From contig CAVXTM010000018.1 of assembly GCA_963764725.1 (NCBI GenBank), forward strand, positions 384,001 through 448,000: a stretch of 64,000 bases of DNA, in the 5' to 3' direction. Made by a program: the position numbers and the translations under genes. A model generated the notes under the pieces. The model was not told the DNA's origin. It worked only from the letters and a program-made list of their open reading frames with translations, and ran no database searches. Below, piece after piece: positions 1 to 20,066 of this stretch (position 1 is the stretch's first letter; each line of letters opens with the position of its first letter). The stretch is from an uncultured Gammaproteobacteria bacterium. Lineage in GTDB: Bacteria > Pseudomonadota > Gammaproteobacteria > JACCXJ01.

Positions 1-1881
1 CTGCATCGTCCGCTCGCTTAGCTCGATCACGTCGAGGGCAATCTCGAGCAGCCCGCCTTCGTCCAACATCGACTGTACGGCGTTGGTGCAGACATTCATC
101 ACAAGCTGATGCAGGCGAATCACATCGCCCTGCACCGTCGCATCCTCCGCGTTCACCTGCAGCCTTAGCGCGATCGTCTCGGGCAGCGAGGCCTTGATAA
201 GCTCCGCGACCTCGCCGAGTAGCGGCCCGAGCCGCACCGGCACATGTTCACGGCTTCCCGGCTGCGTGAAGGCCAGGATTTGATCGACCAGGTCTTTCGC
301 CCGATTCGCCGCCGCCATCACGTTACCCAAATAGCGCTGGAGGTTGCTGCCTGCGGGCACGGCGTCGAGCGCCATCTCCGCATACCCCAGGATGGCACCG
401 AGTATATTGTTGAAATCATGGGCGATCCCGCCTGCGAGCGTCCCGATGGCCTCGAGCTTCTGGGCCTGACGGAGCTGTGCCTCAAGCCGCGCTTTTTCCG
501 ACTCGGCGCGCTCGCGCTCGGCAAGTTCCTCTTGCAACCGGGCGTGGGCGGCCCGCAGCTCGCCCGTGCGCTGCTCGACCCGTAGCTCGAGCTCCGCGTG
601 GGTTTCGGCGAGGGCCCGTTCCGCCGCTTCCCGGCGCGCGATATCGGCCTGCAGCGCCTGCGTGCGCTCCGTCACCTGGGCCTCCAGCTCCGCGGTGTGG
701 GCCCGGATCCGCCCCATCATGTCGTTGAAGGCCCGCGCTAGCTCGCCGGCCTCGTCGTGGGAACGCACGGCCACCTCAACCCCTCGTTCACCCGCCGAAA
801 AGCGAGATACGGCCTCGGTCAGCGTCCGGAACGGCGAGGTGAGCCGGCCCGCCGTCACGACCCCGAAGAGCGAGACGAGAAGGGCGATCGCAATGGCCAG
901 GATGACCCCCTCGCCAAGCAAGCGATCGATGGGCACGAGGAGAACCGATTGGGGCTCGGCGACTACCACCAGCCAAGGCCTATAGCGCAGTCGCGCGGTA
1001 CCGACCGCGTAGGGCTCTGCCTGCGAATCCTGCGATCCCGTCGACAGCGGTGCGGTGAAATAGCCGCCGTTCGATAGCTGTTTAAGCGCGGTCTCCAGGG
1101 CCGGAGGCCCGGTGGCCGCCGCCGGGCCACCGTCGGGCAGCCTCCACTCGGCCTGAAGCCTGCGAATGAGGTCAGTCTCGATCGGCGCCACGGAGGTGAA
1201 GATCAAATCGGGCTGGGCGCTGTCGGCGAGCCGGATGTGGTGCTCATCGAGCAATACCACGCGGGCGCTCGGTGAGGCATGCAGGGCTTGCGTCGTGAGC
1301 TGCTGCACGACCGTGGCGTTGTAGGTAATCCGCAAGACCCCCAGGGGCCGGCCCGCGGGGTCCCACACCAGGCTGGCAAAGTGCAGTGTCAGGGCGTCAC
1401 CGGGCGCATCCGCGAACTGCATCGCCGAGACCGTCGGTACCTTCGTGGCCATGAGCGTCTTGAAGTAGTCGCGCTCTGATTCATCGCGCCCGATCTGTAC
1501 CGTGCGCGTGTCGAGGAGGTTATGACCGGCGAGATCGAGCACGGCGAAGGAGATGAGATTCACGGTGTCCTTGCGGCTCAATCGCAGCAGCGTCTGCCAT
1601 GCGGCTGCCTTGTGAAGCGCGTCACCGGGGGCCGACAGAAAACCTTGAACCGCGGGCAAAAGCGCGTGAACCCGCAAACCATTTAAGTTCTCATTGAGAA
1701 ATCCGTCGATGGCCTGGGCGGTCTGCGTAGCGCTGGCGTAGAGGGCCCGGTGCGCGCCGTCGATCAGCGCTTGGCGCGTCACGCGCTGGTTGAAATACTC
1801 AAGCAGCAAGAGCGGTGCGAGCGAAACCAATAGGAAGGCCGCAATCAGTCGGGGACGCAGCTTGGAAAACGCTCTACGCAT
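1..1881 (-). CDS. Membrane sensor histidine kinase, VirA/CckA-like (TM-Cache-TM-HAMP-HisKA-HATPase), 3' end beyond the window
   Basis: Not in the ORF track because it runs off the window. Manual translation gives start MRRAFSKLRPRLIAAFLLVSLAPLLLL, H-box QLRQAQKLEAIGTLAGGIAHDFNNILGAILGYAEMA and N-box LHQLVMNVCTNA. A Cache-like periplasmic region and a HAMP segment lie in between. Confidence 0.9.
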   Translation of the reverse strand, partial: MRRAFSKLRPRLIAAFLLVSLAPLLLLEYFNQRVTRQALIDGAHRALYASATQTAQAIDGFLNENLNGLRVHALLPAVQGFLSAPGDALHKAAAWQTLLRLSRKDTVNLISFAVLDLAGHNLLDTRTVQIGRDESERDYFKTLMATKVPTVSAMQFADAPGDALTLHFASLVWDPAGRPLGVLRITYNATVVQQLTTQALHASPSARVVLLDEHHIRLADSAQPDLIFTSVAPIETDLIRRLQAEWRLPDGGPAAATGPPALETALKQLSNGGYFTAPLSTGSQDSQAEPYAVGTARLRYRPWLVVVAEPQSVLLVPIDRLLGEGVILAIAIALLVSLFGVVTAGRLTSPFRTLTEAVSRFSAGERGVEVAVRSHDEAGELARAFNDMMGRIRAHTAELEAQVTERTQALQADIARREAAERALAETHAELELRVEQRTGELRAAHARLQEELAERERAESEKARLEAQLRQAQKLEAIGTLAGGIAHDFNNILGAILGYAEMALDAVPAGSNLQRYLGNVMAAANRAKDLVDQILAFTQPGSREHVPVRLGPLLGEVAELIKASLPETIALRLQVNAEDATVQGDVIRLHQLVMNVCTNAVQSMLDEGGLLEIALDVIELSERTMQ

Positions 1882-2039
1882 GCACGCCGCTCTCACGACG
1901 GTTTCCCACCCATCGCAAGCGCGCCGAAGAGCCCTACGCGCCACCGGGCCCGACGACCATCGACTCGACCGGCATGCCGTACACGTTTGATTTGAACCCT
2001 AGCCAAAAAAATTTTGAAATATAAGCATTTCGTAAAACG

Positions 2040-2137
2040 CCCTCTCCCACCGGGAAGGGTTGGGGTGAGGGTACTAGAAGGATGATTACGCATTGTCTTA
2101 TATCCCCTCATCCTAACCTTCTCCCGGAGGAGAAGGG
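2040..2137. repeat. REP-like inverted repeat pair
   Basis: CCCTCTCCCACCGGGAAGGGTTGGGGTGAGGG (2040-2071) and its imperfect reverse complement CCCTCATCCTAACCTTCTCCCGGAGGAGAAGGG (2105-2137), in an intergenic position. Confidence 0.75.
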
Positions 2138-2187
2138 ACTTCTCATTTTGTCGTAGTGGTTTTGTTCCACATTTGAGACGGAAGAAT

Positions 2188-3198
2188 CTATTCGGTCGGA
2201 AGAAACGTCGGATCGATCAGCGCGTCGAGGTCCGGGAGACGCCCGAGGCTCCCGGTTCGGATGTAGAAATCGATATGGGCGCGGGCGCTCTGATACAGTG
2301 ATGTCGGGTCGTTGCGATCGAAGGCCCGGCGATTGTCCGCGAGGCTCAAGAGCTTGAGCCCGAGCGGTTGCACCTCGCCGAGCGGGATGGCGAGTGCTTG
2401 TGCGATGATCGCGTTGTCCTCTTCGGGGTGTGTCCGCCAGTGCTCGACGGCCCGGAGGATCGCACGCAGAAAGGCGCGGACGTCCTCGGGCCGCTCCCGG
2501 AGCACCGCGCCGCGGAACTGGAGCGTATCGATGATGAGCCCTGGGGTCTCTCGGCTCGTGTACAGGACTCGGCCCCCTGCCTGCACCACCCGAGAGACAT
2601 ACGGCTCCCAGGCTTGCCCCGCATCGATCACCCCGGCGCGCAACTGGTCGGGGACATGGTTGGAATCGGTGTTGATGAGCGTGACCTCGGCGCGCGTCAG
2701 CCCCCCGGCCTCTAGCATGCGCTCGACGAAGAGCTCGCCAAAACCGCCCAAGGCGGCCCCGATCACCTTGCCGCGCAGTTCCGCGATGCCCGTGATCGCG
2801 GGCTTCGCGACCACCGCATCGCCGCCTGCGGATTCGTCGATCGCGTAGACCACCCGAATGTCGGGGTGATGACCGCTGGCGACGATGAGGCTGCCGATGG
2901 GCAGCGCGATGCCGTCGTACTTGCCGGCGATGAAATCGGCGATCTGGGGCTCCGTGTCTTCCGTATAGATCACCTCGACGGCCACGCCCTCCCGGGCGTA
3001 GTACCCCAGCTCCCGGGCCAAGGTGATCGGGAAGTATCCTGGCCAGAGGTTGTGCGCAAAGCGAAGCGCCGGGCGCTCGGGAGCGGGCGCCTCGGGCGCC
3101 GAGCAGGCACCGATAAGAAGAACTGTCAACACCAGCCCATGCCCCGCACCCCACCATGCGGCCCATGGCTTGAGCAAATCGCCGCGAAGCCCGCGCAT
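2188..3198 (-). CDS. ABC-type substrate-binding lipoprotein, NMT1/SsuA-like
   Basis: Lipobox LVLTVLLIGAC and motifs WPGYFPITLARELGYY, DESAGGDAVVA and AWEPY. The ORF-track N-terminus (to 3441) crosses the promoter module and is probably spurious; start uncertain. Confidence 0.85.
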   Translation of the reverse strand: MRGLRGDLLKPWAAWWGAGHGLVLTVLLIGACSAPEAPAPERPALRFAHNLWPGYFPITLARELGYYAREGVAVEVIYTEDTEPQIADFIAGKYDGIALPIGSLIVASGHHPDIRVVYAIDESAGGDAVVAKPAITGIAELRGKVIGAALGGFGELFVERMLEAGGLTRAEVTLINTDSNHVPDQLRAGVIDAGQAWEPYVSRVVQAGGRVLYTSRETPGLIIDTLQFRGAVLRERPEDVRAFLRAILRAVEHWRTHPEEDNAIIAQALAIPLGEVQPLGLKLLSLADNRRAFDRNDPTSLYQSARAHIDFYIRTGSLGRLPDLDALIDPTFLPTE

Positions 3199-3202
3199 CA
3201 CC

Positions 3203-3285
3203 GTTACAACTGTAACCGAATCGCTTGCATTTGTAAGCAATTTCCCGCGCTTTGAAATCATCCGGTAAGGCACCCGCGCTAGTTT
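3203..3285 (+). promoter_or_regulatory. Promoter module copy 1 with tandem vir-box-like motifs and a candidate -10 (TAGTTT)
   Basis: GTTACAACTGTAAC at 3203-3216 and a second box 21 bp later. Bases 3203-3270 match 6128-6195 at 56/68 positions without gaps. Confidence 0.7.
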
Positions 3286-3631
3286 ACGCACATCGGGGCA
3301 GGCGAAGGCTCGGAATCCGCACCGCCCTAGTGTAGTGCTTCGTAATAAATGGAACTTGTCGTTGGCCGTACCAAGGTCCTTTTTGCGTATTCCTGTTCCT
3401 CGGAAAGCGTTGCAGCACAAGGATTCCACGCCTGGAATCATAAGTCCTAAAAAGAATGAAGCAGTACACTAGTATACGTAAATCAGGGCAGGCGATGGAT
3501 CGGAATCCTCACCGCCATCTGAAGCAGCGCTAGCAGCGGAGCAAGAGCGCCAGAGAGATGAGATAGGACATCAGCGAAACGTCGTGCCTTGCCATCCCGA
3601 AACGGCGAATCAAACGTCGAGGAGAACGAAC

Positions 3632-4909
3632 ATGTTGAATCATTACGAAGGTATTGAAACTCGCGCCCGCCGGGTTGTGGGGCCCATGCCATTGCCCCGA
3701 GTTGCACGAGGGATCCTCGCTGCGCCTTTCCGCTTAGCAGCGAATGCCACGACTCGTATCTCTAAAGCGCTGGCGCCCTGGGTAGTCATGTGGCGATTCT
3801 TGGAGGGCTTGGACCGTCACTCGCTGGCTTTCTATGGCGACGTTGAAGGCCGAGCAGACCCGAACACGCGGGCGAAGAACGGCCGAATCATGAGCACCGG
3901 CGCCGCGGCGACGGATATGAAAACTAGGAAGTCGATCACGAACATTCTTCCATCACGACAACCGGTAGCGGCCGAGGGCGAGCGACCCACGGTGATCGGC
4001 CTGCACGCCGGTGCCGGCGCTCCGGAGCAATGGCGGCCGCTCGCCGAGCGCCTGCGCTTCCGCAACCGCGTGCTCGCGCCGCACCTCCGCGGCTATGCCG
4101 CGAGCCGCGCATTGGGCACGGGCGAGCCGTTCTCGCTGGATACCGAGACGGCGGCGATCGAGCCTTTGATCGGTGCCTTTCCAGGCCCGGTGTACCTCGT
4201 AGGCCATGACTATGGCGCGGCGGTGGCGCTCAAGCTCGCGCTCGCGCGCCGCGAGCGCATCGGCGGCCTGCTGCTGTACGAGCCGACGCTATTCAGCCTT
4301 TTGTTTTCGGATGCGAAGTCGCGCTACGCCTATATGGACATAGCGCAACTGCGACGCGTGCTAGGACGCTATCTCGATGCGGGCGATAGGCTCCAGGCCG
4401 CGCTGCGCTACGTGGACCATTGCTCGGGCGCAGGCGTGTGGCAAGGCCTTTCAGCCGAGGAGCGGGCAACGATCGCCCATCGCATGCCGGCGCTGTGTGC
4501 GCAGCTCGACGCCCAACTCGCCGATCCGACGCCTGCTTCGGCGTACGCCGGGATCGACGTGCCGGTATTGCTCCTGAGCGGGGCTCGGCCGCGCGCCTGC
4601 ACCCGGCGCATCGCGCAGCTCCTCACGCGCGCGCTCCCCCGCGCGGAGTGGCGCCAGCTCGATGGTGTCGGCCACGGCCCCGGCGCACACCCTGAGGAGG
4701 TCGATCGCGAGATCGAGGACTTTCTCGCGCGGCACCTCTCATCTCGTACCGTGATCCGGAGCCGACAGCGGCCTTCGCGTCGATGGTATCTTGCGCGCCG
4801 CGACGAGCCTGACCGGGCGGACGCCGCATCACGGGAAGAGCCCCGCGCCCTGCCCAGCGCCCCATCGCCAGATCCATGGAACTGTGCGTGGCGCAGGGCA
4901 CGGGGGTAG
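3632..4909 (+). CDS. Alpha/beta fold hydrolase with N-terminal extension
   Basis: AGGAGA RBS before ATG 3632; PTVIGLHAGAG, nucleophile elbow VYLVGHDYGAAVAL and catalytic His in GVGH. Confidence 0.8.
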   Translation: MLNHYEGIETRARRVVGPMPLPRVARGILAAPFRLAANATTRISKALAPWVVMWRFLEGLDRHSLAFYGDVEGRADPNTRAKNGRIMSTGAAATDMKTRKSITNILPSRQPVAAEGERPTVIGLHAGAGAPEQWRPLAERLRFRNRVLAPHLRGYAASRALGTGEPFSLDTETAAIEPLIGAFPGPVYLVGHDYGAAVALKLALARRERIGGLLLYEPTLFSLLFSDAKSRYAYMDIAQLRRVLGRYLDAGDRLQAALRYVDHCSGAGVWQGLSAEERATIAHRMPALCAQLDAQLADPTPASAYAGIDVPVLLLSGARPRACTRRIAQLLTRALPRAEWRQLDGVGHGPGAHPEEVDREIEDFLARHLSSRTVIRSRQRPSRRWYLARRDEPDRADAASREEPRALPSAPSPDPWNCAWRRARG

Positions 4910-5042
4910 TTGAAGAGACAAGGGCCGGTCCAGCGGATCCGGAGTCGGAAACGCCTAAATCAAATCGCGATGATCCCGGGCCACCGGTGACGGTCCGCTC
5001 AAGTATAATGCCGGAGTCTTTTTACCGAGGACCGAGATAGCG

Positions 5043-5762
5043 ATGCCTGCTCCACGCATCCTTGGGGTGGATGACGACCCGGCGATCCGGCAGTTGATCG
5101 CGGACTATCTGACGGAGAATGGCTTTCAGGTCAGCACCGCCGCGGATGGCAGGGCGATGCGACAGCGCTTGACCCAAAGTCCCGTGGACCTCGTGGTGCT
5201 CGATATTCGGCTCGGTCAGGAAGACGGCATGGTGCTCGCCCGCGAGCTGCGAGCGGCATCGGCGGTCCCCATCATCATGCTGACCGGCCAGCGCGAAGAG
5301 GCCGACCGCGTGATGGGTCTGGAGCTGGGTGCGGACGATTACCTCACTAAGCCCTTCAGCCCGCGGGAGCTACTCGCTCGCATCCGGGCCGTGTTGCGCC
5401 GGACCCGGGCGCGCGAGCTATCCCCGCCTAAACGCAACAAGTGGACCCTCTATCGATTCGCCGGCTGGGAGCTCGACATGCGCACCCGCTGTCTGCGCTC
5501 GCCACGGGGCGCGCCCGTCGCCTTGAGCCGAGGAGAGCTGAGCCTGCTTGCGGCCTTCCTGAGCGCCCCCCAGCGCGTGCTGTCGCGCGATGAGCTATTG
5601 GATCTCAGCCGCGTGCACGACAACGAGGTCTTTGACCGCAGCCTCGATGTGCAGATCCTGCGCTTGCGCCGAAAGATAGAAGCCAACCCGGGCGAACCGG
5701 AGCTTATCAAGACCGAACGTGGCGTGGGGTATGTGTTCGCCGCGAAGGTGGACGTGTTATGA
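5043..5762 (+). CDS. OmpR-family response regulator, VirG-like
   Basis: Receiver domain (VDDD, LVVLD, ADDYLTKPF) and winged helix SRVHDNEVFDRSLDVQILRLRRKIEANP...LIKTERGVGY, closely resembling Agrobacterium VirG. TATAAT at 5004-5009. Confidence 0.93.
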   Translation: MPAPRILGVDDDPAIRQLIADYLTENGFQVSTAADGRAMRQRLTQSPVDLVVLDIRLGQEDGMVLARELRAASAVPIIMLTGQREEADRVMGLELGADDYLTKPFSPRELLARIRAVLRRTRARELSPPKRNKWTLYRFAGWELDMRTRCLRSPRGAPVALSRGELSLLAAFLSAPQRVLSRDELLDLSRVHDNEVFDRSLDVQILRLRRKIEANPGEPELIKTERGVGYVFAAKVDVL

Positions 5763-5889
5763 GGCGCGGCTGGCGGCGGATCCTGAGCTTCCGAATCACC
5801 GTCTTGATCGCGTCCTGTGACAGCGGCGTCCGCACGGGGACACTTGCGACGCTGCGATTCGGCTACGACTACTTGCCCGGCTACTACCC

Positions 5890-5990
5890 AGCGGCAACCT
5901 GACGTGCTTATCCTTATCGAGGCTGGGATCGGCCACCTCGATGATCATCAACACGTCCTCAGGGTAGGGATGCGCGTCTACATTAGCGGC
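5890..5990 (-). pseudogene. Uma2 (DUF820) family endonuclease fragment
   Basis: HPYPEDVLMIIEVADPSLDKDKHVRLPL matches the Uma2 core motif; the rest of the domain is missing. Confidence 0.6.
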
Positions 5991-6127
5991 ACGGCTTGAC
6001 CAGGGCGAGATCGGGCTCGGGGAGAATAAGAATTTCAAAAGCCCTTTTTCTACAAAAGGGAAGATACGACCGACTCTATTTTTACGACGCTAGGGTAAAC
6101 GTCGCCACCGCGGGTTGGTTCGTTATT

Positions 6128-6210
6128 GTTACAACGGTAACCGAATCGGTTACATCTGTAAGCAAATTCTCCTTTTTTGAAATCCTCCAGTAAGGTTGCC
6201 CCTCTATCTT
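6128..6210 (+). promoter_or_regulatory. Promoter module copy 2 with tandem vir-box-like motifs and a candidate -10 (TATCTT)
   Basis: GTTACAACGGTAAC (6128-6141) and GTTACATCTGTAAG (6149-6162). The TA---T hexamer lies at the same +77 offset as in copy 1. Confidence 0.7.
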
Positions 6211-6336
6211 AAGACCCTAAATCGACAAGCACGCCTGCCTCGATTGCAGGGACGAGGCCAAGGATCTGTGGCGTTTCATCGCCGCAGCAAGTGCTGTGCA
6301 TGTAGATAGTTAACCACTCTTAAGAGGAGAGCAACG

Positions 6337-6594
6337 ATGAGCAGTGAACGTAACATCGATGAAACGGAATCGTCGGCCGTGTATCGAGGTGAGTCCCGCT
6401 TGCAGGCGCTGAGCGAGCCCTATAACGAATCTCTAGAAGAGTGGTGGCATCGCGAATGCCATCTTTCCGCCGAAAACCGGGATCCCGTACCGACGCGTAA
6501 TTCCGCAACGCCAGCGCTTAAGCGCTTGCTATCTGCACTAGTAAGGTTAGGTATCGCATACCGAAAATCAACCGTTGAGGTCCAGCTAAGATGA
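6337..6594 (+). CDS. Hypothetical small protein, doubtful, contains a REP-like palindrome
   Basis: Strong AGAGGAGA RBS and ATGA overlap with the next gene; no recognisable domain. Confidence 0.3.
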   Translation: MSSERNIDETESSAVYRGESRLQALSEPYNESLEEWWHRECHLSAENRDPVPTRNSATPALKRLLSALVRLGIAYRKSTVEVQLR

Positions 6595-8564
6595 ACATCC
6601 GGCGACAATCCTTCAGTACATCCGAACACTGCGTGCTCTCCGCTTGGCGGGAGCAACTGGCGCAAGCCGCGCAGGGTCTCTCGCAACAACTCGTTCAGCA
6701 GGCGCCACAGCTTCTGCCCCGTTTTGCGGCCTATTACACGAAGCTGCAACAGTTGCCACGGCGGGTGCGGCGGCGCCTGCAACGGCAATTCCGTACGGTG
6801 TGCCGTGCGCACCATTTCTCTGCAAACAGAACGCACCCGACACGAACCCAATCGCTCGCCGGCGTGGCGCTGTTGCTGGCCCTAGGTCAGGCGCCGGCGC
6901 TGGCCGCCACCATCAACGTCGGCGGCGGTTGTTCGCTGGTGAACGCCATTAATTCGGCCAATCAGGAGGCTTCGGTCGGCGGATGCACGGCCGGTAGCGG
7001 TGCGGACACCATTGTGCTACCTGCAAACAGCACCCGCACACTTACGACGGTCAACAATACAAGCTATGGACCTAACGGTCTGCCGGTCATCAGCAGCGCT
7101 ATCACGATCGACGGTAACGGCAGCACCATCACGAGGGGTAATAGCGCGCCGAATCTCCGTATCTTTACCGTGAGCAGCACGGGAAATCTGACCCTGGCGG
7201 AGACCACAGTGAGCCAAGGCGTAGGCGCCGGGGCGTTCCCTGACAATGTCGGTGGCGGCATATTAAACGTTCAAGGTACCGTCAAGCTGATCAACAGCAC
7301 CCTCTCGGAGAATCGTGCTACCGCTGGCGGCGGCCTGCATAACCGTGGCGGCACCGTTAGCCTGAACAACAGCACCGTCTCTGGCAATGACGCCTCCTAT
7401 GGCGGCGGCGGCGTGGATAATCACGTTTCCGGCGTTCTCACCATCACTAACAGCACTATCTCGGGCAATTCCAGCACTCGTGGTGGCATGCTTAACCGCG
7501 AGAGCAGCACCCTCACCATCACCAACAGCACCATCTCGGGTAATGAGGGCGGATTCTTCGGCGGCGTGGCCAACTTGGGCGTCAGCACTCTCATCCTGAG
7601 CAACAGTACCGTCTCAGGCAACTCCTCGTTGCTCAATGGCGGTGGCATAGGTAACTTCGACTCCAGCACTGCCACGGTGAGCAACAGCACCATCTCGGGC
7701 AATTCCGCCTTGGGCAGTTCCGTCTCGGATGGCGGCGGCGTGGCTAACTACAACTCCAGCACGCTCATTCTGAGCGACAGCACCATTTCCGGTAATTCCG
7801 CCTCGGGTACCGGCGGCGGCGTGGCTAACGGCAGCAGCATTCTCACCCTGCGCCGTACGCTGATCTCGGGCAATACCGCCCCCATCGGAGCGGAGGTCAG
7901 GATCGTTAGCAGCACTATTAATGCCGACAACTTCAACCTGATTGGACACAGCGGGCTGACCAATGCACAGGCGTTTACGAACTTCATCCCAGGTGCGAGC
8001 GATATCGCTGCCACTTCGAACGGCAATACGCCCACCGCTCTTACGGGCATCGTCAATCCGACTTTGGCCAACAACGGCGGTCTGACCCAGACCCGCGCCC
8101 TAGCCTTAGGTAGCCCGGCCGTGGACGCGGTAGCGGCCGGCTGTTCGCCACCGAATACAGATCAACGGGGCGTACCAAGGCCGCAGGATGCCAACAACAG
8201 CGGTTTTTTGATTTGTGATATTGGAGCCTTCGAACGGGTGCCGCCCGGCACCGTGACTTGCGACGGTCTGCCTGCCACCATAGTCGGCACACCCGCCAGC
8301 GAGACTATCACCGGCACGCCCGGCCCTGATGTGATCCAAGGCTTAGGCGGCAATGATCTGATTCGGGGTTTAGGAGGCAACGACGTTGTCTGCGGTGGGT
8401 CCGGCAACGATCGCCTATTCGGCGGCCCTGGCGACGACCGCTTGTTCGGCGGCGCCGGTACCGATCGCCTTGCCGGGGAACTCGGCTTCGACCGCTGCGA
8501 CGGCGGCTCGCCTGCCACCGGCGATACGGCCGCTAGCTGCGAGCCGGTACGCAACGTGCCGTAG
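6591..8564 (+). CDS. Secreted right-handed beta-helix protein (choice-of-anchor Q/CSLREA-like) with C-terminal RTX Ca-binding repeats
   Basis: Repeated (N/D)ST(I/V)SGN...GGG(V/I)xN units; LANNGGLTQTRALALGSPAVDA...TDQRGVPRPQD...CDIGAFE; C-terminal GGxGxD nonapeptides; signal-like ALLLALGQAPALA|A. Confidence 0.88.
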   Translation: MNIRRQSFSTSEHCVLSAWREQLAQAAQGLSQQLVQQAPQLLPRFAAYYTKLQQLPRRVRRRLQRQFRTVCRAHHFSANRTHPTRTQSLAGVALLLALGQAPALAATINVGGGCSLVNAINSANQEASVGGCTAGSGADTIVLPANSTRTLTTVNNTSYGPNGLPVISSAITIDGNGSTITRGNSAPNLRIFTVSSTGNLTLAETTVSQGVGAGAFPDNVGGGILNVQGTVKLINSTLSENRATAGGGLHNRGGTVSLNNSTVSGNDASYGGGGVDNHVSGVLTITNSTISGNSSTRGGMLNRESSTLTITNSTISGNEGGFFGGVANLGVSTLILSNSTVSGNSSLLNGGGIGNFDSSTATVSNSTISGNSALGSSVSDGGGVANYNSSTLILSDSTISGNSASGTGGGVANGSSILTLRRTLISGNTAPIGAEVRIVSSTINADNFNLIGHSGLTNAQAFTNFIPGASDIAATSNGNTPTALTGIVNPTLANNGGLTQTRALALGSPAVDAVAAGCSPPNTDQRGVPRPQDANNSGFLICDIGAFERVPPGTVTCDGLPATIVGTPASETITGTPGPDVIQGLGGNDLIRGLGGNDVVCGGSGNDRLFGGPGDDRLFGGAGTDRLAGELGFDRCDGGSPATGDTAASCEPVRNVP

Positions 8565-8825
8565 CCGCGTAGAGCCCGGATGCGGTGCGGTGAGCCCCGC
8601 GAACCTTGCAGGCAGCGCGGCCGTGGCCGAAGACGCCTACGCTCGTCTCCGACCCGCGGGCATGACCCAGCTCCACGATAGCGAGATCAACACGGCGGGC
8701 CATCCGAGTCTCAGCTTCCAAGACACCGGCTCACATCGAGGATCGAGGTCAGGTCTTTCAATGGCACATTTGTTGTCTGCCTGGGATATGCGGAATTTTT
8801 ACTCCGACCCCCACCTGCGGATGGG

Positions 8826-9389
8826 TTAAGCCGCGGCGGGACTCAAGAACGACGCGAACACCTCGGCGCAGCGTCGCCAGGAAAACACCTGCGCATGGTC
8901 GGTGCATGCATTGCTATCGAGCTTGAGCGCATCGAGCACGGCTTGGCGCAAGTCTTCATCCGATCTTCTTTCGGGGTTCAAGCGTAACGCCATGATAATA
9001 CATAGCAAATTAAGAAATCATCATTCTGCTACTGGGTACATCATTACACTTTCACGCCCAGGAGTTTGAAGGCATGGCGTTGTAAGGCGGTGGGCCGGGT
9101 GTGCCGGGAAGGTCCAATGCCAAGAACGCTTCGATGTTCTTCTCCACCGCCACCCGGCCGGTATACATCGCAATCGGGCGGGGCGCATCCAGGAAGCCCT
9201 TCGGCCGCGGCCGGAACAGTTCGGTATCGACGCCCCGCGACCACACGACCACGTTCTTAAATCCACGGGCAAGGAGCAGTTGTTGGACCGAGCTCGTGCT
9301 TACCAGCGTGCTCCGGTCTTTTCCAAGGTCGTGACCACACCGTTGACCTGGGGGTACCAGGCATCGGTGGAAATCGCAATCCTGGCCAT
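8826..9389 (-). pseudogene. GT4 glycosyltransferase (Agt-like partner of PlcP), fragmented
   Basis: Three disjoint pieces: MARIAISTDAWYPQVNGVVTTL, WSRGVDTELFRP...YTGRVAVEKNIEAFLALDLPG and DEDLRQAVLDAL...FSWRRCA. Large internal deletions and an AT-rich insert separate them. Confidence 0.85.
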
Positions 9390-9391
9390 CC

Positions 9392-10189
9392 TTAGGCCGC
9401 GACGGCTTGAACCTGCTTCAAAGAGTGCTGTGCATCCGACCAATGCACCAGCTGCAAAGATCCGTCGTGAAGCTCGACCAGCGCGGTGCAGCTCTCTACC
9501 CAGTCGCCGCTGTTGCAATAAAGCACTCCGTTGATGCTGGTGATCTCGGCCCTATGGATGTGACCGCAGATCAATCCGTCCACCTTCCGTCGGGCGGCTT
9601 CGTAGGACAGCGCCGCCTGGAAGTTGCTCATGTATTGAACGGCGGTTTTCACCTTGTGCTTCATAAAGCCGGCCAATGACCAATACGTGAATCCGAGCCG
9701 GCGGCGCACGTAGTTAACGAGGTGGTTCAAACGCAGCAGCCAGTCATAGACCTTGGTGCCGATGAGGGCCAGGGATGGTGAGTATTTCACCACGGCATCG
9801 AACTGATCGCCGTGCAAGACCAAGAATCGGCGTCCGTCGGCCGTGACATGAATGACTTCATTTTTGACCAGCACATTGCCGAGCACCATCCCATCGTAGT
9901 CGCGGAACATTTCGTCGTGATTTCCCGGAACAAACACCACGCGGGTGCCATGCTTTGCCTTGCCGAGCAGGGTGCGTAATACATTATTGTGGGATTGGGG
10001 CCAGAACAGCCGCTTTTTCATGTGCCACAGATCGATGATATCCCCGACGAGGTAGAGGTAATCGCAGCGCGTGGAACGCAAAAAGTCGAGCAGATACTCG
10101 GCGCGGCATCCTGGAAATCCAAGATGAACATCCGAGATCCAGACTGCCCGATAATGCCCTTCCGGACCCAGCGTATGAATCGTCTTCAT
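9392..10189 (-). CDS. plcP: PlcP/LpxH2-type metallophosphoesterase (phospholipase C for lipid remodelling)
   Basis: ISDVHLG, LVGDIID, PGNHD, LHGDQFD, CGHIH and YCNSGDWVESCTAL motifs; sits next to a GT4 gene as is typical for plcP. Confidence 0.85.
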   Translation of the reverse strand: MKTIHTLGPEGHYRAVWISDVHLGFPGCRAEYLLDFLRSTRCDYLYLVGDIIDLWHMKKRLFWPQSHNNVLRTLLGKAKHGTRVVFVPGNHDEMFRDYDGMVLGNVLVKNEVIHVTADGRRFLVLHGDQFDAVVKYSPSLALIGTKVYDWLLRLNHLVNYVRRRLGFTYWSLAGFMKHKVKTAVQYMSNFQAALSYEAARRKVDGLICGHIHRAEITSINGVLYCNSGDWVESCTALVELHDGSLQLVHWSDAQHSLKQVQAVAA

Positions 10190-10234
10190 CAGCGCATCCC
10201 CAGGATTAAAACTTGGCAACTATGACGCACGATT

Positions 10235-10274
10235 ATTGCGCACAAATGAAGAACTCATGTCGGACGTGTGAAGG
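10235..10274 (-). promoter_or_regulatory. Candidate Pho boxes upstream of plcP
   Basis: On the minus strand, four units at 11-bp spacing (CCTTCAC, CCGACAT, TCTTCAT, GCGCAAT) resemble CTGTCAT repeats. Confidence 0.5.
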
Positions 10275-10430
10275 TTGATCAGCGACGATGCCGCGCTAAA
10301 CTTCTTCGATATAGAAATCCTGAGCTGATGATGATACAAGGACGACATCATTCTGGAGTCCCGATGGGCCGGCGATCGTTCACCGCGCGTTCGCTTAGCG
10401 CCCTCGCAGACTTGTGGGTATCACGCACCG

Positions 10431-11516
10431 ATGAGCAACAGTCTTGAAATCAAGGAGGTCGCGATCCACCCGCTAGAGGTGCCCTTGATCGCACCCTTCA
10501 CCACCTCCGCATCGGAGCTCGAGGTGGTCAACAACCTTGCCGTTAGTATAGAACTGACCAACGGCGCGCGCGGCTGGGGCGAGGTGCCGATTTTGCCTCC
10601 GATCACCGTCGAGGACCAGGCGAGCGCACGTATAGCGCTTGCCGATGAAGCCGGACGGCTCGCCGGCGAAAACGCGGGTGCATGGCGACGCATCGGGGCG
10701 GAGCTCGCAGAGCGCATCCCGCACCTCGCGGCGGTGCGTGCCGGGATCGAAATGGCACTGATCGACGCGCTGACGCGCAGTTGGGGCGCGGCTTTGTTTC
10801 AATTTTTTGGCGGCTGCGAGGACCAAGTGATCACTGATATCACCATACCGATCTGTCCCGCCAGCGCCGCGCAAGACCTGGCCGCGCGTTATCGACAGGC
10901 CGGGTTCACGACCATCAAAGTAAAGATCGGAGGTGATCTCGGCCTGGACAGCGAGCGGGTACGCGTCATCCGGCGCGGCCATCCCGAATGCCGATTGATC
11001 CTCGATGCAAACGCCGGCTACACGCCGGATCAGATCTTGGCTTTATTGCGGGATCTGCGTCTTGCCGCGATCGAGGTGGCGCTGCTGGAACAACCGGTCG
11101 CCCGTGAAGACTGGGAAGGACTCGGGAAGCTGGCGCGCGAGGCAGGCATGCCGGTGGCTGCCGATGAATCCTGCCGCAGCCCCGCGGATGCGATCCGGAT
11201 CGGGGCGCACAAGCTCGCCCAGGTCATCAATATAAAGCTTGCCAAATGCGGCGTCGTGCAGGCGCTGGAGATCGCCGCGATCGCACGCGCTTCTGGCCTT
11301 GGGCTCATGATCGGCGGGATGGTGGAAACGCGCCTCGCCATGGGCTTTAGTGCGCACTTCGCGGCGGGGCTCGGCGGCTTCGATTGGATCGATCTCGACA
11401 CACCGCTCTTGCTCTCCACGGACCCGATTGCCGGAGGATACCGCGCGCAGGGCGCGAGGTACCGGCTGGATACCGGTTGCGCCGGACACGGTGGATACTT
11501 GCGGGCTTGCGGTTGA
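10431..11516 (+). CDS. L-Ala-D/L-Glu dipeptide epimerase (enolase superfamily)
   Basis: KVK, LDAN, LEQP, ADES, NIKLAK and DLD motifs. Confidence 0.9.
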   Translation: MSNSLEIKEVAIHPLEVPLIAPFTTSASELEVVNNLAVSIELTNGARGWGEVPILPPITVEDQASARIALADEAGRLAGENAGAWRRIGAELAERIPHLAAVRAGIEMALIDALTRSWGAALFQFFGGCEDQVITDITIPICPASAAQDLAARYRQAGFTTIKVKIGGDLGLDSERVRVIRRGHPECRLILDANAGYTPDQILALLRDLRLAAIEVALLEQPVAREDWEGLGKLAREAGMPVAADESCRSPADAIRIGAHKLAQVINIKLAKCGVVQALEIAAIARASGLGLMIGGMVETRLAMGFSAHFAAGLGGFDWIDLDTPLLLSTDPIAGGYRAQGARYRLDTGCAGHGGYLRACG

Positions 11517-11583
11517 GCACGGGACGCTGGCGCGGGGGCGCCGAAGCGAAAGGCACCGGTCGGTATATCATCGTTCGCGTGTA

Positions 11584-11692
11584 AGAGGTTGTGAATAAAT
11601 CGTCGCGAGCAGCGTCGAGCGCCAGGAGCCGCGGAGCGAGCGAGCACGCGACACAGCGATCGGGATGCGCCGCAGATTTATTCAAAACCTCT
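11584..11692. mobile_element. MITE-like element with 18-bp terminal inverted repeats
   Basis: AGAGGTTGTGAATAAATC ... GATTTATTCAAAACCTCT (17/18 match); internal core related to the elements at 15065 and 22702. Confidence 0.8.
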
Positions 11693-11707
11693 GAGTGGAG
11701 AGTTGAC

Positions 11708-12373
11708 ATGATCTTCAAATCCTCATTGCTTTCCTTGGCGCTTAGCCTATTGTTGTACGGCTGCGCGGACGGAGCTCTGCATCTCAAAATGGAGCTTGAA
11801 AAAACCTACGGCCTCTCGGCTGGCGATCCCGTGGTATTTGAGAATGACAGGGTGGGCGCCGTCGCTTCCGTGCAGTCCCGCGACCCCAGTGGGTTTATCG
11901 CCAACCTCGAGATCCTCAAGGAGAAACGCGACTTAGCGACAACGAATGCTCGCTTCCGGATCGCTGATCGCCCATCCGTTGCGCAACGAAAGCAAGTCGA
12001 GATTATTCACGCCGGCGCCGATGGAACACCGCTAGAAGACGGCGCGACCGTTCAAGGCGCCCTGGCATCGGCGCCGCTGTTCCCGTTTAGCGAGCTGTTT
12101 GGGGGAATGGCGGAAGGCCTCCGGAACTTGAGAGAACAGACGGAGCGCTTCCGGCGGGAGTTCGAGAACATTCCGGACTCCGACGAAGCCCGTCAGTTGC
12201 GCGAGGAATGGTGGCGGCTGCTCGAGGAAATTCAAAGAGCGCAAAGCGAAGCGAAAGAATCTCTGCGCGAGGAAATACTGCCCAAGCTCGAAGAAGAGAT
12301 GGAAAACCTGAGAAAGAAATTCGAGGAAATGAAACCCGAGGATTCTAAGCGCGGCTCGCCGTTAGAAACCTAG
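11708..12373 (+). CDS. MCE/MlaD-domain lipoprotein with C-terminal coiled coil
   Basis: Lipobox LLLYGC and GLSAGDPVVFENDRVGAVASV MCE motif. The ORF-track extension to 11591 is MITE-derived. Confidence 0.75.
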   Translation: MIFKSSLLSLALSLLLYGCADGALHLKMELEKTYGLSAGDPVVFENDRVGAVASVQSRDPSGFIANLEILKEKRDLATTNARFRIADRPSVAQRKQVEIIHAGADGTPLEDGATVQGALASAPLFPFSELFGGMAEGLRNLREQTERFRREFENIPDSDEARQLREEWWRLLEEIQRAQSEAKESLREEILPKLEEEMENLRKKFEEMKPEDSKRGSPLET

Positions 12374-13055: not shown

Positions 13056-14897
13056 CTAACTCGATTCACGCAAAGCCGTAATCAAGCGCCGCAACTCGTC
13101 GCCGCGATGTTTGTCCGCTTCGGAAATCACCTGCACGATCTCCTTGAATTCCTTGATGCGCGCCCGTTCTCCGTAGTGCAAAGCTTCCGCGGTCTCCGCC
13201 AGCGCTGCGATGAGCTTATTGAAATGCGCATCCCAACCGGCAGCCTTGTCCGCGATGCCAAGCTCCACTCTTTTTACCAGTTGCTGCGCCCAGGCATTGA
13301 GGCTGGTGATCTGTTCGGTATCGGCGCGCCTGCGATCCTCGAGATCTTCGCGCATCTTCTCCAACATGGAGTCGAACTGCCGCTGTTGCCGCCCCTGCTC
13401 AATGCCCCAGGTCTTGCGCAATTGCTGGCGATCTTCCTCGTGCCGATCGACGATTACCGCATACTTAAGCGACAATTCGGATAGATTCTTGGCGGCTTGA
13501 TCGGCAAACGTCGAAGTCTGTCGGTCGAAACGCGTCACCAGATCCTGGTAGTGCTGGTTCATCCGTCCCAGGAGCTCCTGGTGCTGCGCCGCCAACGCTT
13601 CGGACTCCTGGGTGGCTCGAGCGCGAACGGCGTCGAGATGACTATCGAGCGCACGGCGCTGGGTCTCGCCCTCCTTGAGCCGGCTTTCGGCGTCATTGCG
13701 CCAGCTTGCGTCGATCGCGGCCACATGCTGTTCCAACTTCTCCAGGTAACCGGAATAGTGTTTACCGATCGTTTCCACATACGCCTGCAGCGCGCCGGTA
13801 AGCTCTTGGGCATGGACAGCTAACTTGTCGAAATGCTGAAGCTCTTGCACGCTTCGAGCTTGCCGCTCCCATTCGAACAACTTCAAGAGCTCCTCGCGTT
13901 GCTCTTGATCGCGTTGCGTACCGCTATCGAAGCGGGCCTGGACTTTGGAAAAGAGATCTTTACCGGCATCATCCATAATGCCGGCCGCATGCACGAGTAT
14001 GCCCTTGATGGCGGGTTCAATCTCGGCGCCAAAGCGTTTCACGGCGACGCTTAAATCCGCCCGGATAAGCTCCACCTTCTCGCTAATGGCGTCGGCGATG
14101 TGATTCGCAAACAACTCCTGGGCGTTACGGGCATCATCGCGCGCGGACATTAAGCCCGTCACGGCATCCTGGAAACGCTCCACGACAGCGGGAACGGCCG
14201 TCCCCTGCTCCACCAGCTTTTCGAGCGCCGCGATCTGCCGCGCAACTGGATGAAGCTGGGTCAACGAGCTCGCGGCGAGGCCCGAGACAAGATCATTGAG
14301 GCGGCTTTCCTCGCGCCGCGTCAGCGTAGCCGCCAAACCCAGGATCACCGAGGTCGCCACCCCGGAGACCGAGGTACCGAACGCGCGCGCCAGCCCGGCA
14401 ATCGGGGCCAGCAGCGACTCGCGCAAGGTTTCCAGTTCGGCCGTGCTCTGTAGCGCCGCGCGCGTACCGCTCAAGGTGTCAACCAAACCGATGAAGGTCC
14501 CAATCAGCCCAAGCAAGATCAACGCACCGATCAAGTAGGGTGTGTACGGTGCGCGCAAACTACTCACCTGCACACCCTCGTAAAGCCGGCCATGCACGAT
14601 TCGGTAGAGCGCGGGGCTCAAGCTGTCGAACTGTTCCTCGGCGGGCAGGTTATCATCCAATTCTTGAAGTTCTTTTTGGAATTGCTCGATGTCGGTGGTT
14701 TGCAGCCATAATTCATTTATGCCGAAGCCGAAACCCATCAATATGAGCACGACGATGAAAATCGCGCGGAAATCCTCGTAAGGCGCATAGGTGATGATGA
14801 CCCAAAGCGGGATGATCAAGCCCAGCAATCCGCAATAGAGGATGAGAATACGCGGCGCGGTGAGGCGGGCCCAGGATTGTATTTTTTTATATTGCAT
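13056..14897 (-). CDS. DUF802-type MotA-like protein with long coiled-coil tail, ZorA-like
   Basis: TPYLIGALILLGLIGTFIGLV and LAPIAGLARAFGTSVSGVATS TM motifs followed by about 400 aa of helical tail; ends 18 bp before the ZorB-like gene. Confidence 0.8.
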   Translation of the reverse strand: MQYKKIQSWARLTAPRILILYCGLLGLIIPLWVIITYAPYEDFRAIFIVVLILMGFGFGINELWLQTTDIEQFQKELQELDDNLPAEEQFDSLSPALYRIVHGRLYEGVQVSSLRAPYTPYLIGALILLGLIGTFIGLVDTLSGTRAALQSTAELETLRESLLAPIAGLARAFGTSVSGVATSVILGLAATLTRREESRLNDLVSGLAASSLTQLHPVARQIAALEKLVEQGTAVPAVVERFQDAVTGLMSARDDARNAQELFANHIADAISEKVELIRADLSVAVKRFGAEIEPAIKGILVHAAGIMDDAGKDLFSKVQARFDSGTQRDQEQREELLKLFEWERQARSVQELQHFDKLAVHAQELTGALQAYVETIGKHYSGYLEKLEQHVAAIDASWRNDAESRLKEGETQRRALDSHLDAVRARATQESEALAAQHQELLGRMNQHYQDLVTRFDRQTSTFADQAAKNLSELSLKYAVIVDRHEEDRQQLRKTWGIEQGRQQRQFDSMLEKMREDLEDRRRADTEQITSLNAWAQQLVKRVELGIADKAAGWDAHFNKLIAALAETAEALHYGERARIKEFKEIVQVISEADKHRGDELRRLITALRESS

Positions 14898-15064
14898 AGG
14901 GTCCTCACTCTAGAATATACACCTAACCCGATGGACCACAACACCGCTCGCCTAATTCTACGGGCGCCTCCCCGAGACAGCGCGGGCCGCAGGGTGAATA
15001 TTACGCAGAAACGCCGCGTCCACGCCACCACTCACTGACGGGCATGTGATCGCTTTCACTTAGA

Positions 15065-18780: not shown

Positions 18781-19809
18781 TCAGTTTCCGACTGCCGCGG
18801 GGTGAGAGTTATCCGGGATCCGGTAACCCTTCATGCGCCGCCAGAGCGTCGTGCGGCTGATCCCTAAGTCTTTCGCTACGGAATCGAGATTACCGTCGCG
18901 CGCTTCTAGAGTCTTCATAATCGCCTCGCGCTCCAAGCTATCGAGGCGCACGAGCGGCTCTTGATGCCTGGGTCTTACCGTCTTGGGCAACCAAGATCCG
19001 GGCATGATCTCGCTCCCCTCGGTCACCACCAACGCGCGGATCACGAGATTCTCAAGCTCGCGTATGTTGCCTGGGAAATCATAGGCGCATAGGGATGCCA
19101 GGGTCTCGCCGTGGAGCGCGATGATGCTATCGTTAATGCCATGGCGGTGTTTCGCCAGAAAATGCTCGGCGAGCACCGGTATGTCGCGCCGGCGTTCCCG
19201 CAACGCCGGCATCGTGATAGGGAACGTATTCAGACGGTAGTAAAGATCCGCTCTGAAATTACCCCGCTCCACCTCGCGCTGGAGATCTTTATTGGTTGCG
19301 GAGATGAGCCTGATATCGACACGCCGGTATTGATTGTCTCCCACGCGCCGAAAGCTTCCGTCCTGTAACACCTGCAGTAGCTTCACCTGCAACGTCGGGC
19401 TCAACTCGCTCACTTCGTCCAGGAACAGCGTGCCGCCGTCCACGGCTTCGACCAACCCTTTCTTATCCTGGACCGCGCCCGAAAATGCGCCGCGCTTGTG
19501 GCCGAAAAGCTCGCTCTCGCACAAAGTTTCCTGCAGGCTGCCGCAGTTTTGGGCGATAAACGGCCGTCCGCGGCGAGGACTCGCACTGTGAATCGCCGCT
19601 GCAAGCAGGGTTTTTCCGCTTCCCGTCTCGCCTCCGATCAAGACCGGAACGGAACACCTTGCCACCCGTCTTGCGGAGTCGATAACAGCCCGCACGGCGT
19701 CGCTCCGTCCCACGATGGGATCGAAAGGATCGGCCGTGTCCGCCACTGTGACAGCGCTAAGATCACCTTGCACACACCCGCCTACGATCGCTTCAAAGTC
19801 GGTATCCAT
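18781..19809 (-). CDS. Sigma-54-interacting AAA+ transcriptional activator with Fis HTH and no input domain
   Basis: GETGSGKT, ESELFGHKRGAFSGA, TLFLDEV, FRADLYYRL, FPGNIREL and LGISRTTLWRRM; GGGAG RBS before ATG 19809. Confidence 0.92.
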   Translation of the reverse strand: MDTDFEAIVGGCVQGDLSAVTVADTADPFDPIVGRSDAVRAVIDSARRVARCSVPVLIGGETGSGKTLLAAAIHSASPRRGRPFIAQNCGSLQETLCESELFGHKRGAFSGAVQDKKGLVEAVDGGTLFLDEVSELSPTLQVKLLQVLQDGSFRRVGDNQYRRVDIRLISATNKDLQREVERGNFRADLYYRLNTFPITMPALRERRRDIPVLAEHFLAKHRHGINDSIIALHGETLASLCAYDFPGNIRELENLVIRALVVTEGSEIMPGSWLPKTVRPRHQEPLVRLDSLEREAIMKTLEARDGNLDSVAKDLGISRTTLWRRMKGYRIPDNSHPAAVGN

Positions 19810-20066
19810 GTCGTGCTCCCGAATAGAAAGGTTCGTCTCCAAAATCATCTACGAGGCAGCCGCCGTTTTGGATTGGTGAAACTGCGGGATAATATAAGTG
19901 CGATCTTTGCGTGATTCGGTAAACTATGTCCTATCTGGTGTGTGAAAAAATTACGCTGCGGCGCTCGCCGCTACACCCGCCTCCCTGTGTGCGCAGGATG
20001 TGCCGCGGCCCGGGGGTGTAAACCGCGTTATGGATGGCGAACACCCGCTCGGGGTTAAGAAAGTGG

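Follow-up and report, generated by a model that had tools for sequence, protein, structure and literature searches.

A putative binding-protein-dependent sensor with an NMT1-type lipoprotein, a dCache kinase and a VirG-like regulator in an uncultured gammaproteobacterium

The first 6,210 positions of a 64,000-nucleotide stretch of DNA from an uncultured gammaproteobacterium (contig CAVXTM010000018.1, positions 384,001 to 448,000; the whole stretch is referred to as the window) hold four genes and one gene remnant, as judged from open reading frame (ORF) calls and translations. Three of these genes encode a hybrid sensor histidine kinase, a periplasmic solute-binding protein (SBP) of the NMT1/SsuA family, named SBP1, and an OmpR-type response regulator. 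On balance, and to judge from sequence comparison, this locus would constitute a binding-protein-dependent two-component sensor built from two separable modules, an input formed by SBP1 and the dCache-HAMP portion of the kinase, and a phosphotransfer core that resembles VirA and VirG of Agrobacterium.

Sensor kinase and binding protein

The kinase gene (1..1944, minus strand) is open at the window start, and the window edge cuts inside the ATPase domain, with the in-window part reaching the N-box, a truncation absent from an earlier reading of this DNA made from the letters alone (the sequence-only reading). The true start of the kinase is probably M22, at position 1881, because orthologues start at the equivalent position. 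Pfam places dCache_1 at ORF residues 59-241 (47.4 bits, cut-off 45), HAMP at residues 364-415 (47.4 bits; positions 700..855) and the HisKA dimerisation and phospho-acceptor domain at residues 501-562 (positions 259..444), which contains the H-box GGIAHDFNNILGAILGY with its His at residue 509 (codon 418-420). The Cache/HAMP kinase with an H-box that had been read from the letters was thereby borne out. The periplasmic dCache domain (residues 53-343; positions 916..1788), delimited by the position of TM2, an AlphaFold2 model and a fold match in the PDB, lies between the transmembrane helices TM1 (about residues 33-51) and TM2 (residues 344-366). The model (pLDDT 87.6) is a typical bimodular dCache domain, whose best fold match in the PDB is the sensor domain of DctB (3by9, TM-score 0.70-0.79), with Tlp3 and PctC also matching.

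Seven loci from metagenome-assembled genomes (MAGs) of Gammaproteobacteria (L001-L007) encode SBPs that are 91-93% identical to SBP1, and in the two loci compared at the DNA level (L004 and L005) the kinase and SBP genes are 90-92% identical to those of the window. The complete kinase orthologues in L002, L003 and L005 (842-863 aa) comprise dCache_1, HAMP, HisKA, HATPase_c and Response_reg. Because they have both the ATPase end and a receiver, the window kinase is almost certainly, by homology, a hybrid kinase whose remaining ATPase end and receiver are just outside the window.

The transmitter of this kinase (HisKA-HATPase-receiver) is, as far as profile and pairwise comparisons can tell, clearly of the VirA type. 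The NCBIfam model for VirA-like sensor kinases (NF010411) matches L002 with 444 bits, L005 with 439 bits and the window fragment with 195 bits, the L002 match spanning model positions 362-822 of 828, and the next model, CckA, reaches 260 bits. BLASTP aligns the L002 orthologue with pTiC58 VirA at 37% identity over 391 alignment columns, in the kinase and receiver only (VirA residues 448-831), and finds no similarity in the N-terminal halves, and the orthologue shares 49% identity over 387 residues with a kinase of an Indioceanicola plasmid that PGAP names VirA-like. Comparison with VirA and CckA, proposed by the sequence-only reading as a check, placed the transmitter with VirA, but the scores stay below the equivalog cut-off of NF010411 (647 bits), because the N-terminal half of the kinase is unrelated. 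In that half, VirA (131.7 bits), the Indioceanicola kinase (148.7 bits) and a Bradyrhizobium kinase (122.9 bits) match the DAHL family of Pfam, whereas the window kinase has dCache_1 and HAMP instead.

SBP1 (2188..3198, minus strand; 336 aa from MRGLRG), the proposed co-sensor, is encoded upstream of the kinase on the same strand, as had been read, but does not abut it, some 306 nt separating it from M22. It is a predicted lipoprotein with lipobox Cys32 (LxAC consensus in relatives), which Pfam assigns to NMT1 (78.5 bits, cut-off 20.5) and NMT1_2 (61.1 bits) and to no other family; it is therefore not of the Peripla_BP_4 family to which ChvE belongs. On the SsuA-family model TIGR01728 it scores 89.1 bits, below the cut-off of 163.5. 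Its structural model (pLDDT 94.3) has the class II binding-protein fold of TauA, SsuA and ThiY (TM-score 0.76-0.80 to TauA and SsuA), and a sequence-profile search of the PDB returned remote matches only, among them SsuA (3uif, E 6.5e-17). The fold matches (TauA, SsuA, Thi5/ThiY, NrtA/CmpA and PqqT, at 12-19% identity) span binders of taurine, sulfonate, pyrimidine, nitrate, bicarbonate and PQQ, so the fold allows no inference of the ligand. An Rfam scan of positions 1-9000 at E ≤ 1, in which a riboswitch could have served as a ligand clue, gave one chance match to a miRNA model only.

Co-folding of SBP1 with the dCache domain, using alignments paired by locus, gave a median ipSAE of 0.46 (runs 0.46, 0.59 and 0.44), against 0.05 for the best of three controls, with a pLDDT of at least 89 for both partners and contacts that agree to at least 84% between runs. 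The sensor-adjacent SBP of L012 and L015 is truncated or 1060 nt away, and these two loci stand outside the paired alignments. On the calibration set, 116 of 157 solved complexes passed the mark, as did 2 of 215 mismatched pairs; scores of 0.60 or under accounted for 18 of the 157 solved complexes and for both mismatches. The co-fold, another check put forward with the sequence-only reading, is thus above its controls but only in a weak band. It lends weak support to a modelled contact between SBP1 and the dCache domain, a small increment on a prior that was already high from the gene neighbourhood.

Pairing of binding protein and sensor across genomes

The survey of SBP homologues was based on 23 aligned homologues and one scanned genome per species, which gave 147 pattern matches, 136 of them confirmed. 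The best 80 of the 136 confirmed matches form a set of 79 loci, with 38-93% identity, from five phyla (Cyanobacteriota, Pseudomonadota, Myxococcota, Chloroflexota and Gemmatimonadota). The next ORF downstream, on the same strand, shows homology to about residues 27-440 of the kinase, which cover dCache, TM2 and HAMP, in 78 of the 79 loci. At the exception, L032, the SBP gene lies 81 nt from the contig end and the downstream genes are unrelated; this locus is uninformative on an upstream sensor. Of 77 SBP-sensor pairs, 60 have between -3 and +10 nt from the stop of the first gene to the start of the second, a tight spacing that suggests co-translation.

Genes for ATP-binding cassette (ABC) transport are rare around these pairs. 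ABC ATPase-like ORFs with Walker A and ABC-signature motifs occur in 3 of the 79 loci, within flanks of up to 10 kb on each side where the contig allowed, and none of them stands beside the SBP on its strand. Among the 78 flanking ORFs (two each side) of 20 representative loci, Pfam found no NMT1-linked permease at any locus (0/20), the sole permease being one BPD_transp_1 protein that accompanies an SBP_bac_1 gene on the other strand. Within the window, none of the larger ORFs scanned between 1 and 12 kb encodes an ABC permease or ATPase, in agreement with the sequence-only reading, and the closest ABC genes are of the Opp/Nik type at 24.5-28.6 kb. Because the SBP is paired with a sensor in 78 of 79 loci and almost no ABC genes lie nearby, it is, by gene neighbourhood, an orphan that travels with the sensor. 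These results uphold the three-part sensor read from the letters, and the association of homologues with sensors is the opposite of the association with ABC permeases that had been set down as telling against it.

The 78 sensors collapse to 20 clusters at 65% identity. Pairwise distances between SBPs and between dCache domains correlate closely (Pearson 0.97, Spearman 0.92; 71 complete pairs), which fits co-inheritance as a unit. A sensor-domain profile run against 1.84 billion proteins shows the dCache-HAMP sensor family to be large: 2106 representatives (50% identity clusters) match at E ≤ 1e-3, and 739 still do so at E ≤ 1e-30. Fusion of SBP and sensor in one chain (Rosetta stone) was sought in 12 N-terminally extended members, picked from the best 150 representatives of the sensor family, and none of the 12 contains an SBP domain. 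In many members of the family (P0132, P0140, P0145 and others), an N-terminal extension of some 200 residues without any Pfam match precedes the dCache domain. P0188 has MHYT repeats in this extension; the other extended members scanned have no match there.

The output to which the input is attached varies, as established by Pfam on 16 representatives from the 20 sensor clusters. A HisKA-HATPase-REC output is found in a cluster of 27 cyanobacterial loci, in the window's own group, in Sorangium, and in a Gemmatimonadaceae and an Ardenticatenales MAG. GGDEF is the output in 16 loci, the SpoIIE phosphatase in a cluster of 11 loci and two others, PAS with adenylate/guanylate cyclase (Guanylate_cyc) in 3 loci, and a GAF-kinase in 3 loci, and the sensor of Vibrio sinus is a HAMP-HATPase_c protein with no HisKA match. 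One Microcoleus genome encodes two cassettes, one with SpoIIE and the other with kinase-receiver output, whose SBPs are 73% identical and whose dCache domains are also 73% identical. The NMT1-type lipoprotein and the dCache-HAMP sensor have about an even chance of being an ancient, self-contained input cassette for one periplasmic ligand class, which would have been duplicated and re-wired to at least five outputs, namely phosphorelay, c-di-GMP synthesis, PP2C phosphatase, cyclic-nucleotide synthesis and GAF-kinase, across five phyla.

Gene order around the pair also varies. Several cyanobacterial loci (L015 at 7830-11788, L033, L052, L054 and L010) have two to four tandem SBP paralogues ahead of one sensor, with four SBP-homologous ORFs in L015, and in L048 (13614-17469) a second dCache-HAMP kinase is followed by another NMT1 gene, which reverses the gene order. 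In the cyanobacterial kinase-receiver class, the sensor gene runs into a REC-GGDEF response-regulator gene (13610-14977 in L029), so that SBP, kinase and a diguanylate-cyclase regulator form an operon of three genes. Equivalent regulator ORFs are present in many Nostoc loci (about 13611-14978), REC-GGDEF having been seen by Pfam for L029 only. The cassette of L019, an Acetobacteraceae MAG, clusters at 65% identity or more with GGDEF-output cassettes of Nostoc, which suggests a recent transfer or a mis-binned cyanobacterial contig.

Receptors that read signals through binding proteins are thought to be common, with few characterised (according to the available portion of PMC9602780). If the reading of the locus as a binding-protein-dependent sensor is right, it belongs to a large, conserved and uncharacterised class of receptors. 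Such a class would be easy to study, since the input pair is attached to simply assayed outputs (c-di-GMP, cAMP/cGMP, phosphatase). Once the ligand of a single member is found, hundreds of receptors, in cyanobacteria and beyond, could probably be annotated, and it would become apparent how a fixed two-protein input recombines with different transmitters. If the pair is indeed an input cassette, one more family of binding proteins would join the known drivers of receptors, as part of a widespread and unrecognised signalling input (739 representatives).

Response regulator, mechanism and alternatives

The regulator gene (5043..5762, plus strand) encodes Response_reg and Trans_reg_C domains (Pfam), with Asp54 and Lys103, and its segment SRVHDNEVFDRSLDVQILRLRRKIE aligns with SRVREEEVYDRSIDVLILRLRRKLE of pTiC58 VirG, so the OmpR-type regulator with a VirG-like C-terminus was correctly recognised from the letters. 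The best NCBIfam models are VirG (NF010430; 254.2 bits, cut-off 344) and OmpR (234.6 bits, cut-off 331), both scores falling short of the cut-off. The regulator is 50% identical to pTiC58 VirG, 47% to OmpR and 39-40% to ArcA and TorR of E. coli, and 54-61% to non-Ti regulators of Variovorax, Indioceanicola, Azospirillum and Bradyrhizobium. In a maximum-likelihood tree of 13 sequences (IQ-TREE), which sampled one VirG and seven outgroup regulators (comparators OmpR, ArcA, TorR, PhoB, CpxR and CreB), it falls in a six-member clade with VirG at a support of 84/91, below the tool's star threshold. This clade holds three of the four non-Ti regulators, with that of Azospirillum outside, and OmpR and ArcA/TorR stand apart. 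The tree argues with moderate strength that the regulator groups with VirG and not with OmpR, ArcA or TorR; the placement among VirG proteins that the sequence-only reading proposed to examine is thus tentatively favoured by branching, but not by the equivalog cut-off. Two of the four closest plasmid relatives examined adjoin a VirA-like kinase and two do not. To judge by these comparisons, the term VirA/VirG-like is correct for the phosphotransfer core, but not as a statement of orthology.

In the proposed mechanism, lipid-anchored SBP1 would capture a small periplasmic ligand and, once loaded, dock on the kinase's dCache domain; TM2 and HAMP would then carry the signal to the VirA-type transmitter. 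The HisKA-HATPase-receiver core, whose family membership is shown, would autophosphorylate on H-box His509, and the phosphoryl group would move to Asp54 in the VirG-clade regulator encoded nearby. The C-terminal receiver of the kinase itself would modulate the process internally, the role that the receiver domain of VirA plays. The regulator would then control transcription, possibly of the adjacent hydrolase and RTX-repeat genes, which are candidate targets from their proximity. Kinases and regulators of these families are partners in Agrobacterium, and their genes lie side by side in Indioceanicola and Bradyrhizobium.

Several points weigh against this mechanism. In the window's own lineage, the SBP and kinase genes stand some 100-390 nt apart (in the window, 306 nt to M22), compared with overlaps in cyanobacteria, and spacing therefore gives no case for co-transcription there. 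The 79 loci are mostly from Nostoc and Microcoleus, so independent observations are far fewer than 78, and the correlation of SBP and dCache distances is inflated and confounded by shared ancestry. The co-fold score lies in a band where most predictions are wrong unless the contact was already probable on other grounds, and the dCache domain might need no partner to bind a ligand. The receiver domain is known from orthologues, the window stopping before it, and hybrid kinases usually need an Hpt (histidine phosphotransfer) protein, none of which was seen, though not every small ORF was scanned. Finally, L005 has the SBP-kinase pair and the hydrolase with no regulator in 7.9 kb upstream, and the module can therefore occur without one.

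The best placed alternative, itself unlikely, is that the dCache domain senses the ligand directly, the SBP being an import component with permease and ATPase encoded elsewhere and kept beside the sensor for co-regulation, or serving in transport and signalling at once. Direct binding of small ligands is common for dCache domains, including the best fold matches DctB, Tlp3 and PctC, and SBP1 has the fold of the transport proteins TauA, SsuA and ThiY. PMC8050422 lists SBPs that work with a transporter as well as with a receiver (in the part of this review that was available, as for all statements drawn from it), and co-fold support for a contact with the dCache domain is weak. An import role is harder to reconcile with ABC ATPase-like ORFs in only 3 of 79 loci, with the lack of NMT1-type permeases among the 78 flanking ORFs of 20 loci, and with the translationally coupled spacing in 60 of 77 pairs. 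It also sits poorly with an SBP-sensor pair that is kept while the output domain changes, and with SBP genes multiplied in tandem before a single sensor in some loci (four in L015).

Slightly more doubtful is that the kinase and the neighbouring regulator are not cognate. In that case an unlinked Hpt would connect the kinase, by a His-Asp-His-Asp relay, to some other regulator, and a different kinase would serve the VirG-clade regulator. The orthologues are hybrid kinases with a receiver at the C-terminus, L005 has the pair with no adjacent regulator, and the kinase and regulator genes lie on opposite strands, 3.1 kb apart, in a mosaic neighbourhood, all of which would suit such a relay. The transmitter, however, is specifically of the VirA type (444 against 260 bits), and VirA signals directly to VirG without an Hpt protein. 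Relatives of the regulator adjoin VirA-like kinases in Indioceanicola and Bradyrhizobium, no second kinase, regulator or SBP copy matches the module genes in the 64-kb window at E ≤ 1e-5, and the arrangement of regulator, hydrolase and SBP-kinase pair is kept in L004.

The very improbable reading of the locus as a displaced virulence sensor of the Agrobacterium type, with true orthologues of VirA, VirG and ChvE, draws on the best NCBIfam models being VirA-like and VirG and on the 50% identity of the regulator to VirG, but is effectively refuted by domain and cut-off tests on the sequences, given that both equivalog cut-offs are missed (444 against 647 and 254 against 344 bits), VirA similarity does not extend beyond the kinase-receiver part, the periplasmic domain is dCache and not DAHL, the SBP is NMT1-type where ChvE is Peripla_BP_4, the regulator is closer to non-Ti regulators (54-61%) and 47% identical to OmpR, and the neighbours are housekeeping genes with no vir genes among them.

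Compared with the ChvE-VirA-VirG system of the Agrobacterium Ti plasmid, the locus follows the same logic, with one binding protein in the periplasm, one hybrid kinase and one regulator of the OmpR type; the transmitters are homologous, and the regulators probably belong to one clade. The VirA/ChvE-style input that the sequence-only reading had proposed was not supported. VirA receives its input through DAHL and a linker, whereas the window kinase has dCache and HAMP; ChvE is a Peripla_BP_4 protein encoded with transporter genes (PMC8050422), whereas SBP1 is an orphan NMT1-type lipoprotein encoded beside the kinase; and no vir or T-DNA genes were found around the window module. The label VirA/ChvE is therefore attractive for the window but misleading, as only the transmitter and the regulator are VirA/VirG-like. 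VirA-like kinase-regulator pairs annotated by PGAP in Alpha- and Betaproteobacteria, for example on Indioceanicola and Bradyrhizobium plasmids, likewise lie outside T-DNA, with 49% identity in the transmitter and 54-56% in the regulators, but they have a DAHL sensor and are preceded by a cytochrome c peroxidase gene, not a binding-protein gene. A VirA-like kinase with its regulator outside T-DNA is an already annotated and common arrangement, and hence not novel in itself. The cytochrome c peroxidase gene immediately before the VirA-like kinase recurs in the Indioceanicola (L081, 3323-7726) and Bradyrhizobium (L084, 8543-11802) plasmids.

Binding-protein-dependent receptors are an established kind. 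The review PMC8050422 tabulates LuxP-LuxQ, HptA-HptS, TorT-TorS, ChvE-VirA, AioX-AioS, NspS-MbaA and others, with 13 SBP families, and PMC9602780, from 2022 and likewise available in part, gives 13 of 22 SBP families as known to interact with receptors, with more expected, and only about ten characterised cases of SBP-dependent sensor kinases. LuxP-LuxQ, HptA-HptS, NspS-MbaA and ScrB-ScrC resemble the locus in that the SBP gene adjoins the receptor gene, the sensor is bimodular and dCache-type, and the outputs include kinase and GGDEF/EAL (PMC8050422). Their SBPs differ, being of the Peripla_BP_4, SBP_bac_11, SBP_bac_8 and SBP_bac_3 families and not NMT1 (PMC8050422). The term NMT1 occurs 0 times in the review PMC8050422, and no description of an NMT1/SsuA-family protein as a receptor partner was found in the full-text literature, a coverage that excludes subscription-only papers. 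Ligands of NMT1 proteins known from structures are thiamine and aminopyrimidine, as given in an excerpt of PMC10443332, and a lead through COG0715 (excerpt of PMC13125312) concerned a transporter gene only.

The arsenite sensor AioX-AioS-AioR also has an orphan class II binding protein (Phosphonate-bd) that is encoded with the kinase and acts in sensing only (PMC8050422). The differences are that AioS has an sCache-like sensor and that AioX belongs to another SBP family. AioR is a different type of regulator from the VirG-clade regulator. NasS-NasT offers a cytoplasmic precedent in which an NrtA-like protein acts as a sensor. The extracellular receptor Dret_0059 (PDB 5ERE), whose structure matches the dCache model (rank 6, E 8e-13), presumably joins a tandem PAS-like (dCache) domain to a solute-binding domain within a single chain, and would be a physical precedent for association of an SBP with dCache. 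It differs from the window in being a one-chain fusion where the window has two genes, and its SBP domain probably belongs to a different family from SBP1.

Genomic setting and neighbouring genes

The remainder of the window consists of housekeeping genes, including lon, clpXP, tig, valS, the 2-oxoglutarate dehydrogenase genes sucAB-lpd, gltA, mdh and the class III polyhydroxyalkanoate (PHA) synthase genes phaEC. No vir or type IV secretion system (T4SS) genes were found in the 64-kb window, confirming the setting outside T-DNA that had been described.

The hydrolase gene (3584..4909, plus strand) is divergent from SBP1 and encodes an alpha/beta-hydrolase (Pfam Abhydrolase_6 and Abhydrolase_1). 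Its ORF start is probably too early, because the Pfam match does not begin until residue 135; Met codons at 3890 and 3917 are likelier starts. At the nucleophile elbow the motif GHDYG places Asp at the nucleophile position, as is presumably the case in the group of epoxide hydrolases and haloalkane/fluoroacetate dehalogenases, and NCBIfam gives weak matches to haloalkane dehalogenase (E 1.7e-9). Homologues of this hydrolase are divergent from SBP1 in L002, L003, L004 and L005, and RTX-repeat proteins are encoded near the module in L004, L005 and L007.

A remnant of a second, paralogous binding-protein gene, SBP2 (5762..5893, plus strand), begins directly after the regulator stop codon and retains about 45 codons from the 5' end of the gene, which match the intact L004 SBP2 over its residues 35-79 at 76% identity (tblastn). 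In L004, SBP2 (4798-5868, minus strand) directly follows the regulator and is 41% identical to SBP1. The sequence past 5893 in the window is unrelated to SBP2 and lower in G+C, and the SBP2 gene is truncated there.

The neighbourhood is mosaic among close relatives, as seen when L004 and L005 are compared with the window. L005 is 90% identical in DNA over window positions 1-1890, its hydrolase gene being only 78% identical. L004 has two hydrolase genes, the second copy of which (479-2073, against window 2842-4802) has 89% DNA identity to that of the window and is accompanied by duplicated fragments of the 5' end of SBP1, which shows recombination or duplication among modules. A single MAG is the source of both L004 and L005, which may represent paralogues or strain variants.

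A scan of positions 1700-6700 for promoters and terminators found no promoter-like sites and 4 terminator-like sites, against 4.4 expected. Repeats that could be candidate regulator sites in the intergenic regions were limited to short two-copy repeats and one palindrome, none common to the regions. The palindrome, an inverted repeat at 6129-6161 with 16-nt arms that are 81% complementary and 1 nt between them, lies in an A+T-richer spacer upstream of the RTX gene and the small ORF before it. It is a possible binding site for a regulator, and has no counterpart in the other intergenic regions.

Further into the window, a sigma-54-type activator (18781-19845, minus strand; 354 residues) with an AAA+ core and a helix-turn-helix has NifA, NorR and RtcR as its best NCBIfam models, all below cut-off, and from its sequence appears to be without an N-terminal sensory or receiver domain.

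The RTX gene (6591..8564, plus strand) encodes a secreted-type repeat protein with a choice-of-anchor Q match (NCBIfam choice_anch_Q, 62.9 bits) and C-terminal RTX calcium-binding repeats (Pfam HemolysinCabind). About 90 residues of its ORF precede a signal-peptide-like segment, so the true start is uncertain. It is preceded by an 85-codon ORF (6337-6594, plus strand) that has a strong Shine-Dalgarno sequence and no Pfam match, and whose ATGA overlap with the start of the RTX gene suggests that the two are translationally coupled.

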